In this document: one piece after another, positions 59,849 to 62,050 of the stretch
Numbering within the stretch: the stretch's first letter is position 1
Layout: each line of letters opens with the position of its first letter
DNA from: an uncultured Verrucomicrobiota bacterium
GTDB lineage: Bacteria; Verrucomicrobiota; Verrucomicrobiia; Palsa-1439
DNA length: 64,000 nucleotides
Assembly (NCBI GenBank): GCA_903825435.1
Contig: CAIKAP010000081.1
Coordinates: 13,118 to 77,117, forward strand
Direction of reading: 5' to 3'
Position numbers and translations under genes: made by a program
Notes under the pieces: generated by a model
Seen by the model: the letters and a program-made list of their open reading frames with translations, nothing else
Told to the model about the DNA's origin: nothing
Database searches by the model: none

Positions 59849-62050
59849 TCAATACGGCAGCGGGAAACGAGCGGTCAGGGCGCGGACTTTGGATTTGACG
59901 GCGGTGGCGACGGCGGCGTCCTCGGGTTTGTCGAGGACTTCGATGATCAGGGCGGCGATCTGTTGCATCTCGGCTTCCTTCATGCCGCGCGTGGTGACGG
60001 CGGGCGTGCCGATGCGGACGCCGCTGGTGACCATCGGTTTCTCAGGGTCGAACGGAATCATGTTCTTGTTGACCGTGATGCCGGCTTTGTCGAGAGCTTC
60101 CTGGGCGATCTTGCCGGTGAGCTTCTTCGGGCGGAGGTCAACGAGCATGAGATGGTTGTCGGTGCCGCCGCTGACGATGCGCAGGCCGCCTTTGGCGAGC
60201 GCGGCGGCCATGGCGGTGGCGTTCTTGATGATCTGCTGCTGGTAAACCTTGAACGCGGGTTGCATCGCTTCCTTGAAGCAGACGGCCTTGGCAGCAATGA
60301 TGTGTTCGAGTGGACCTCCTTGGATGCCTGGGAAAATCTGGGAGTTGACGGCCTTGGCGTGGGCTTCCTTGCAGAGGATCATGCCGCCACGCGGGCCTCG
60401 GAGCGTCTTATGGGTGGTGGTGGTGACGATGTCGGCGTGCGGGACCGGGTTCGGGTGCAGCCCGGCGGCGACGAGGCCCGCGATGTGGGCCATGTCAACG
60501 ATGAGTGTAGCGCCGACTTCCTTGGCGATAGCAGCAAACGCGGCGAAATCGAGCGTGCGCGGGTAAGCGCTGGCGCCGACGACGATGACACGCGGTTTCT
60601 CGGCGCGGGCGAGCTTGACGACTTCGTCCATGTCAATCTGTTCGGTCTCTTTGCTCAGGCCGTAGGGGACAATTTTGAAGAGTTTGCCGGAGAAATTGAC
60701 GGGGGAACCGTGGGTGAGGTGGCCACCGAAGTTCAGGCTCATCGCGAGAAGGGTGTCGCCGGGTTTGGCGACGGCGAAGTAGGCAGCCATGTTGGCTTGG
60801 GAGCCGGAGTGGGGCTGGACGTTGGCGTGGTCGGCGCCGAAGAGTTGTTTGGCGCGGTCGATGGCGAGTTGCTCGGCGACGTCAACACATTCGCAGCCGC
60901 CGTAGTAACGCTTGGCGGGATAGCCCTCGGCGTATTTGTTCGTGAGCACGCTGCCGGCGGCTTCGAGGACGGCGAGAGAGACGAAATTCTCGCTGGCGAT
61001 CAGCTCGATGTTGTCCTGCTGGCGGCGCGTTTCTTCCCGAATGGAATCATAGATCTGCGGGTCGGTCTGGGCGAGGACGGAGTTAGTGGGTTGGCAACAG
61101 GTTGGGGGATGATCCATTTTCTTTACTCGCTGCTCGTGGCGGCCGCCTTCGAATTCGGTTTTGAACCAGACGTCGAGGATGGCGACGGCTCGTTCGTTGG
61201 TCATGCCCTCGGCGTCAGCACTAAGGATGATAATGTTGGCGTCGTTGTGCTGACGGCTAAGTTGTGCCCAGTGTTCGTCATTGACGAGTGCGGCACGAAC
61301 GCCGATGACGCGGTTGGCGGCGATACTCATGCCTATGCCGCTTTTACAGATGAGGATGCCGCGGTCGAACTTACCGGCAGCAATTTCTTTGGCAACGGCG
61401 AAGGCATAGTCTGGGTAATCGACCGACTGAGAGGAGTTGGAGCCGAAATCGGCGCAGGGAAAGCCGTGTTGTTTGAGCCAAGTTGTCAGCGCGGCTTTCA
61501 ATTCGACTCCACCGTGGTCGGCGGCGATGGCGACTCGGAGCGAGTGTGCGGGCGCGGCACCGTCTTCAGCGACGGCATTGCGGGCGGTTTCGGTCTGTTC
61601 GATGAAGGCGAGGATGCTGGGCATGGCTTTACTGATCTGGTCGCGGGTGCGTCGGTACACTTCTGTGGGTTGTCCGATCGGATCGGGAATGTCGCGGCCG
61701 ATGATTTCGCCGTCCTCAAATTCACGAACGACGAAAACTTTTTCCGCCGTAGCGGGGTAGAACGTCTGGATGGCGTCCTGTTGCTGGCGGGTCATGGTGA
61801 AAACGTAGTCGGCTTCCTCGATGAGGCGCGAACTGAGCGACTGACTGCGGAAGTTGGAGATGTCGATCCCGACCTCGGCCATGGCCGTGACGGCGACATC
61901 GGTAGCGAGCTGACCGTCGAGCGCGCCGAGACCGGCAGAGAGCACGCGCAGGTCGGTGCGACGAGCGAGCTGGTGGCGCATCAATGCTTCGGCCATTGGG
62001 CTGCGACAGACGTTGCCGGTACAGACGAAGAGAATGGTTTTCATTGCCAC
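59849..62050 (-). CDS. glyA: single 733-codon ORF encoding LMW protein-tyrosine phosphatase + ribose-5-phosphate isomerase B + serine hydroxymethyltransferase
   Basis: N-terminus [15 protein letters not shown] (CX5R P-loop); middle VAIAADHGG...[13 protein letters not shown]...EGGRHEQRV (RpiB); C-terminal 420 aa collinear with E. coli GlyA ([14 protein letters not shown]); no stop codon between the three units; internal ATG (KKMDHPP) could be an independent glyA start. Confidence 0.75.

Follow-up and report, generated by a model that had tools for sequence, protein, structure and literature searches.

A single protein that combines serine hydroxymethyltransferase (SHMT, the glyA product) with a low-molecular-weight (LMW) phosphatase and with ribose 5-phosphate isomerase B (RpiB) has been reported from the genome of Methylacidiphilum infernorum V4, where it is encoded by Minf_1669 (Hou et al. 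2008, Biol Direct 3:26, PMC2474590). Literature searches for experimental or later work on this fusion returned only that genome paper. In many Bacillota (loci L017, L025, L046, L050 and others of the survey described below) the phosphatase, rpiB and glyA are separate neighboring genes, and two-domain proteins that join the phosphatase domain (Pfam LMWPc) to RpiB, or RpiB to SHMT, occur as well. Here, we examine a 64,000-nucleotide stretch of contig CAIKAP010000081.1 from an uncultured Verrucomicrobiota bacterium (hereafter the window), whose minus strand carries one gene spanning all three units. We conclude that it is very probably a genuine, vertically inherited fusion encoding one ~79-kDa chain, in which a YwlE-like LMW phosphatase, RpiB and SHMT are connected by two short flexible linkers.

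The window gene resembles Minf_1669 in phylum and in its three domains. The two organisms belong to different orders, and the likeness is one of described domains, the order of the domains not being stated in the paper. Beyond that description, the window's clade has a conserved upstream context of purD and an S41-family peptidase gene. The Bacillota cluster shows the same gene order and orientation as the domains of the fusion, but its genes are separate and a gap of ~500 nt (ywlG) precedes glyA, whereas the window has one open reading frame (ORF). Two-domain proteins follow the same junction logic as the window gene, with the C-terminal helix of RpiB running into a short linker, but contain only two of its three domains; as both types exist, the two junctions can fuse independently. 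The fusion is thus real, conserved in many Verrucomicrobia and already known from public databases and the 2008 genome paper: the exact protein of the window is already in NCBI, JGI and ENA, and it has hundreds of orthologues.

The ORF listing gives an uninterrupted minus-strand frame of 733 codons from a GTG (59849..62050) that ends in a TGA at 59849-59851, as an initial annotation made from the sequence alone had described. The ATG at 62044 is the likely start of the gene, as judged from sequence comparison, in which the resulting N-terminus matches the public protein P0001 and most orthologues. The same annotation had proposed a tri-domain product of three full-length units in which RpiB lacks a terminator of its own, and profile searches agree on each point. 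LMWPc (residues 6-144), LacAB_rpiB (residues 173-312, profile positions 1-138 of 138) and SHMT (residues 326-702, profile positions 1-399 of 399) all match within the single ORF, with RpiB and SHMT read in one continuous frame. Curated NCBIfam models are matched above their cut-offs by RpiB (TIGR01120, 155.9 bits against 138.65; NF004051, 170.8 against 135, profile positions 3-144 of 149) and by SHMT (NF000586, 658 bits against 335, profile positions 1-403 of 404). From this near-complete Pfam and NCBIfam coverage, we take all three domains to be full length (Table 1). No second copy of an LMWPc, RpiB or SHMT domain was found elsewhere in the window. On the opposite strand, a stop-free ORF of 796 codons (59813..62203, plus strand) spans the entire fusion gene; in coding DNA as GC-rich as this (60% GC across the window), it is most probably a shadow ORF, not a gene.

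Table 1. Features of the fusion gene and its surroundings (window coordinates; residues numbered from the ATG unless stated)
Feature	Position	Strand	Remarks
Whole fusion gene	59849..62044	-	ATG to TGA, 731 aa; alternative GTG start at 62050 gives 733 codons; 100% identity to public P0001
LMW phosphatase domain (Pfam LMWPc)	61619..62035	-	106.8 bits (cut-off 23.2); nearest solved structures are YwlE-type
Phosphatase P-loop C8-T-G-N-V-C-R14-S	62000..62023	-	nucleophile Cys and Arg both present; Val at position 5
Asp121 of D-P motif	61682..61684	-	predicted general acid; invariant in 58 homologues
Phosphatase-RpiB linker	61535..61618	-	variable; model confidence low at residues 159-166
RpiB domain, complete	61115..61534	-	DHGG motif, Cys233, H266-N267, G-G-R302-H-x-x-R306-V
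Internal ATG (K-K-M-D-H-P-P)	61115..61117	-	Met310 from the ATG, Met312 from the GTG; in RpiB C-terminal helix 302-311
RpiB-SHMT linker	61076..61114	-	conserved D-x-P-P cap, then length-variable low-confidence segment (residues 314-320)
SHMT domain, complete	59852..61075	-	pyridoxal phosphate (PLP)-binding Lys546 at 60407-60409
S41-family peptidase gene	62041..63117	-	lipoprotein-type signal; PF03572, 99.9 bits; its TGA overlaps the fusion ATG as ATGA
purD (glycinamide ribonucleotide synthetase)	63127..64000	-	cut by window end; conserved as the second gene upstream of the fusion; also identified in 18 related loci
Sua5/TsaC-LMWPc loci			L035, L042, L045, L047, L054, L063, L074, L075, L076; Pfam-checked: L042, L076

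The catalytic residues of all three domains are conserved. C8, R14 and D121 of the phosphatase, C233, H266, R302 and R306 of RpiB and K546 of SHMT are invariant or nearly so in the alignment; across 58 homologues the RpiB residues C233, D176-H177, H266-N267, R302 and R306 do not vary, and the SHMT PLP-lysine motif that holds K546 in the window protein is present in 120 of 120 homologues. For the roles of these residues (P-loop, D121, the RpiB positions as in E. coli RpiB, and K546) we assume what is generally held for the families, of which RpiB and SHMT form obligate dimers. An AlphaFold2 (AF2) model built on the 58-sequence alignment has a mean predicted local distance difference test (pLDDT) score of 88.9, and only residues 159-166 and 314-320, which lie in the two linkers, fall below 50. 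The protein would presumably be made mainly as one chain, with all three activities retained.

Independent copies and orthologues show the same continuous frame. An identical 731-aa protein occurs on 10 or more contigs of separately made assemblies (JGI, ENA), and in the three independent metagenome assemblies with readable DNA at the locus, the 2196-nt gene has no nucleotide difference from the window. In a search over 5.8 billion proteins, all three Pfam domains were present together in at least 120 clusters at the 90% level, which have 65-100% identity and, when complete, 709-758 aa; those with names are Verrucomicrobia/Verrucomicrobiae metagenome-assembled genomes (MAGs). Orthologues, whose comparison the initial annotation had proposed, are therefore not uniformly separate proteins. 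Across the tri-domain clusters, the RpiB-SHMT linker can be as short as 9 aa or as long as 22 aa, and the frame is kept in every case, which is direct evidence of selection for a continuous reading frame.

We surveyed the gene arrangement at 80 RpiB loci of GTDB species representatives; the sample of loci is near-random and is not a set of nearest relatives. Among the survey loci listed, the three domains share a single ORF in Chthoniobacterales (L004, L005, L010), a Pedosphaera MAG (L008), Spartobacteria (L044) and other Verrucomicrobiota (L013, L058), while RpiB-SHMT genes occur in Kiritimatiellota (L028, L065), Verrucomicrobiota (L041, L057, L076), Eisenbacteria (L018) and Deferrimicrobium (L039). 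These RpiB-SHMT proteins are about 565-600 aa long, and P0248 is another example. LMWPc-RpiB proteins of ~300 aa form dozens of clusters among 50%-identity representatives obtained with query residues 1-338 (P0126 and P0134 were Pfam-checked). At that identity level the tri-domain family collapses to very few representatives, because its SHMT part is so conserved, and no count of tri-domain lineages is drawn from them. In Acidobacteriota, Alphaproteobacteria, Nitrospiria and others, rpiB is followed directly by glyA with no phosphatase gene detected nearby, and some rpiB/glyA pairs among the listed loci are in frame with a single stop between them.

In other lineages, RpiB has further fusion partners: uracil phosphoribosyltransferase, another phosphoribosyltransferase, DUF436 and transaldolase (P0237, P0261, P0211, P0236, P0214). 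We take DUF436 to be the YwlG family and the Bacillus subtilis cluster to read ywlE-ywlF(rpiB)-ywlG-glyA-upp; on that assumption, the fusion partners of RpiB, the phosphatase and SHMT included, presumably cover every rpiB neighbor there (ywlE, ywlG, glyA, upp). Proteins of about 360-445 aa that fuse Sua5/TsaC to an LMW phosphatase are encoded immediately upstream of rpiB in Planctomycetota and in L076, a Verrucomicrobiota MAG (Table 1). A tri-domain relative (P0271/P0145/P0272) has a degenerate SHMT domain that scores 130 bits, with IELIASEN replaced by ALDLRAAAD; it may represent a paralogue no longer functional as SHMT.

The range of architectures found across lineages indicates that fusion has occurred repeatedly within a very widespread gene cluster, the window gene being one of the results. 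Such a fusion had been expected to be unusual; instead, LMWPc-RpiB proteins are common and the tri-domain form is widespread in Verrucomicrobiota. It most likely originated by loss of the stop codons between adjacent genes of the (tsaC)-ywlE-like phosphatase-rpiB-glyA cluster, in which case the short rpiB-glyA spacer would have become the second linker. One subclade carries 'MKTLQxVDPEIY' inside this linker and others carry 'PMKxTSA', apparently the former glyA start, which fits loss of the rpiB stop with the spacer read through.

The alternative that survives best concerns the internal ATG at the RpiB/SHMT junction, which would yield the tri-domain protein plus a free SHMT with a 13-residue N-terminal extension if it also served as a start. 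The initial annotation had raised this possibility for GlyA, and the ATG (61117..61115) and the cgagtaaagaaa that precedes it are as it described; the case for a separate start is weaker. Its Met belongs to the last helix of RpiB, residues 302-311 in the AF2 model: stand-alone and di-domain RpiB proteins end in GGRHxRRVxK[I/L/M], where the window Met occupies a hydrophobic helix position, and K[L/I]D-x-P-P also ends unfused RpiBs of other lineages, so that this motif is part of RpiB, not of GlyA. At the equivalent position, unfused RpiBs from 59 loci have Ile in 40, Leu in 12, Val in 4, Met in 2 and Phe in 1. By contrast, 119 close tri-domain clusters have Met in 99, Ile in 15 and Leu in 5, and the codon is ATG in 40 of 43 distinct metagenome junction DNAs, an enrichment that speaks for an internal start; the subclade with Ile, moreover, keeps a Met further along the linker. 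The remaining three junction DNAs, all from clade members, have ATA, ATC and CTC, five close clusters lack Met throughout the segment between the RpiB and SHMT cores, and distant fused genes have CTC, CTG or ATC, seven of them without a linker Met (L004, L005, L008, L010, L018, L028, L065). Given a Met within the RpiB helix and non-start codons in fused orthologues, separate initiation of GlyA is not conserved in these fusions.

Signals in the surrounding nucleotides are mixed. No Shine-Dalgarno motif was found at a workable spacing before the internal ATG (GAGTAAAGAAA, no match), but this is uninformative and no counter-argument, because 9 of 10 genuine gene starts of the source organism also lack one. 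In 20 of 43 orthologues (L085, L089, L103 and 17 more), the E-G-G codons of FEGGRH, GAA GGA GGC, give AAGGAGG, a string of perfect Shine-Dalgarno type, 25 nt upstream of the junction ATG. As a ribosome-binding site we rejected it, since it is too far upstream and the window has GAA GGC GGC instead. Depletion of RNA structure around the internal ATG gave no signal across 43 orthologues, the structure there being average for the gene (z = -0.01). Where the codon before the junction ATG (61118..61120; junctions L084-L202) encodes Lys or Glu, its third base is A in 37 of 41 cases (AAA 21, AAG 3, GAA 16, GAG 1), compared with gene-wide shares of 0.47 for AAA and 0.58 for GAA, and the A content upstream is modestly raised (6.2 against 4.4), in sequences that are phylogenetically non-independent. 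The A-ending bias may reflect phylogenetic inertia or be a weak sign of an internal start, and shared ancestry may likewise account for the Met enrichment. On balance, we consider dual expression unlikely.

The phosphatase domain has the marks of the LMW phosphatase family (PF01451), namely a C-X5-R-(S/T) loop, CTGNVCRS at residues 8-15, and D121-P122 downstream. Its closest solved structures are 4pic, 4kk3 and 4egs (E about 1e-22 to 1e-24), mostly YwlE-type; 4egs is a phosphatase-fold chain that was deposited as RpiB. YwlE itself is a phosphoarginine phosphatase with Thr at P-loop position 5, and this Thr (C-x-G-N-T-C-R-S) is critical for phosphoarginine specificity according to the passage of PMC7772506 that cites Fuhrmann et al. 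2013. The window domain has Val there, and all 92 homologues in which the loop was located have Val or Ile. We therefore do not file the domain as an arginine phosphatase, despite its highest overall similarity being to YwlE structures. Two further assignments were rejected because scores fell below the NCBIfam equivalog cut-offs: thioredoxin-coupled ArsC (PRK13530, 65 bits against 215; TIGR02691, 59 against 174) and Wzb/Etp-type tyrosine phosphatase (NF007520 for Wzb, 68 bits against 243).

A more elaborate and rather doubtful proposal joins these two subjects. In it, the junction ATG would be a maintained internal start giving a tethered and a free form of SHMT, and the tethered form, with the purD neighbor, would be a physical channel that supplies purine synthesis with ribose-5-phosphate, glycine and one-carbon units; the target of the phosphatase domain might be a metabolite or the fusion enzyme itself, not phosphoproteins.

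Another alternative draws on the gene neighborhood: the single chain would be a polyprotein whose linkers are cleaved to release the individual enzymes, perhaps by the S41 peptidase that is co-transcribed with it. The S41 identity given in the initial annotation stands, but the overlap of 10 nt reported there does not: counted from the likely start, the ATG at 62044, the two genes share the 4 nt of ATGA. The S41 stop overlaps the fusion ATG in the closest relatives as well, and an S41 gene lies directly upstream of the fusion in every relative (63-85% identity) with at least about 725 nt of upstream flank, 25 loci altogether. In all of those with a further 1-1.5 kb of flank, 16 loci, purD precedes the S41 gene. 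The more distant L013 (58% identity) has both genes, and in L008 the immediate upstream neighbor of the fusion is purD. This translationally coupled, conserved neighbor and the disordered linkers of the AF2 model are what processing has in its favor. However, the S41 protein bears a lipoprotein-type signal peptide and is expected outside the cytoplasm, which led us to reject it as the processing enzyme; the linkers are variable, with no conserved cleavage motif beyond DxPP, and the distant tri-domain loci L004, L005, L010 and L044 show no S41 neighbor. We regard processing of the chain as very improbable.

There is next to no chance that a missed stop or a 1-nt indel at the rpiB/glyA junction has joined separate genes, the artefact that the initial annotation had allowed for: an out-of-frame TAA does occur in GTAAAG right before the internal ATG, and rpiB and glyA are separate but adjacent in many other phyla, but the three assemblies agree to the nucleotide, the continuous frame recurs at differing linker lengths in at least 120 clusters of orthologues (NCBI, JGI and ENA), and GGRHxxRV-KK-M of RpiB is in the same frame as SHMT.

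A genuine single-chain fusion is thus the reading we favor, and four points weigh against parts of it. The full-length product and its three activities are predicted from the gene sequence, and the purine-supply rationale set out below comes from gene neighborhood only. The predicted template modelling score of the AF2 model is 0.59, so the arrangement of the domains relative to one another is not fixed by the model. Lastly, the frequency of Met at the junction compared with unfused RpiBs, together with the almost invariably A-ending codon before it, would also be compatible with an additional start at the internal ATG.

Several features of the surroundings stand apart from these questions. 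The 358-aa S41 peptidase (LAAVGC signal), wedged between purD and the fusion in the window and loci L085-L197, is an odd partner for metabolic genes. Downstream of the fusion, a gene for an ACT-domain protein is followed by one for a DUF711 protein (57117..59392, minus strand), and a predicted membrane protein of 116 aa without a Pfam match (59485..59835) lies between this pair and the fusion. A ribonucleotide reductase gene downstream (L001 11653..14196) is called as one 1025-aa product, while the same sequence in an ENA contig (ERZ1426827) is called as products of 729 and 295 aa; the discrepancy may stem from gene calling or from assembly.

As to what the fusion offers the cell, SHMT converts serine and tetrahydrofolate to glycine and methylene-tetrahydrofolate, PurD joins glycine to phosphoribosylamine, and RpiB yields the ribose-5-phosphate used to make phosphoribosyl pyrophosphate (PRPP). 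A single chain would provide fixed-ratio co-expression and co-localization of the ribose-5-phosphate supply with the supply of glycine and methylene-tetrahydrofolate. In the window's clade, the benefit would go to the synthesis of purines and nucleotides, in keeping with the conserved purD upstream, and RpiB fusions to PRPP-using transferases occur in other lineages. Co-expression and co-localization of precursor suppliers for nucleotide synthesis is accordingly the best-supported interpretation of the fusion that gene neighborhood suggests.

The finding also bears on annotation, as database entries label these genes variously 'ribose 5-phosphate isomerase B' or 'serine hydroxymethyltransferase', and either label hides two of the three activities. 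What is left of novelty in the window gene lies in the possible internal start and in the function of the phosphatase domain. More broadly, the fusion is a 'Rosetta stone' linking three genes that are neighbors in many phyla for no agreed reason, and, with an LMW phosphatase placed beside rpiB and glyA, it provides a handle on the role of this phosphatase in central metabolism.

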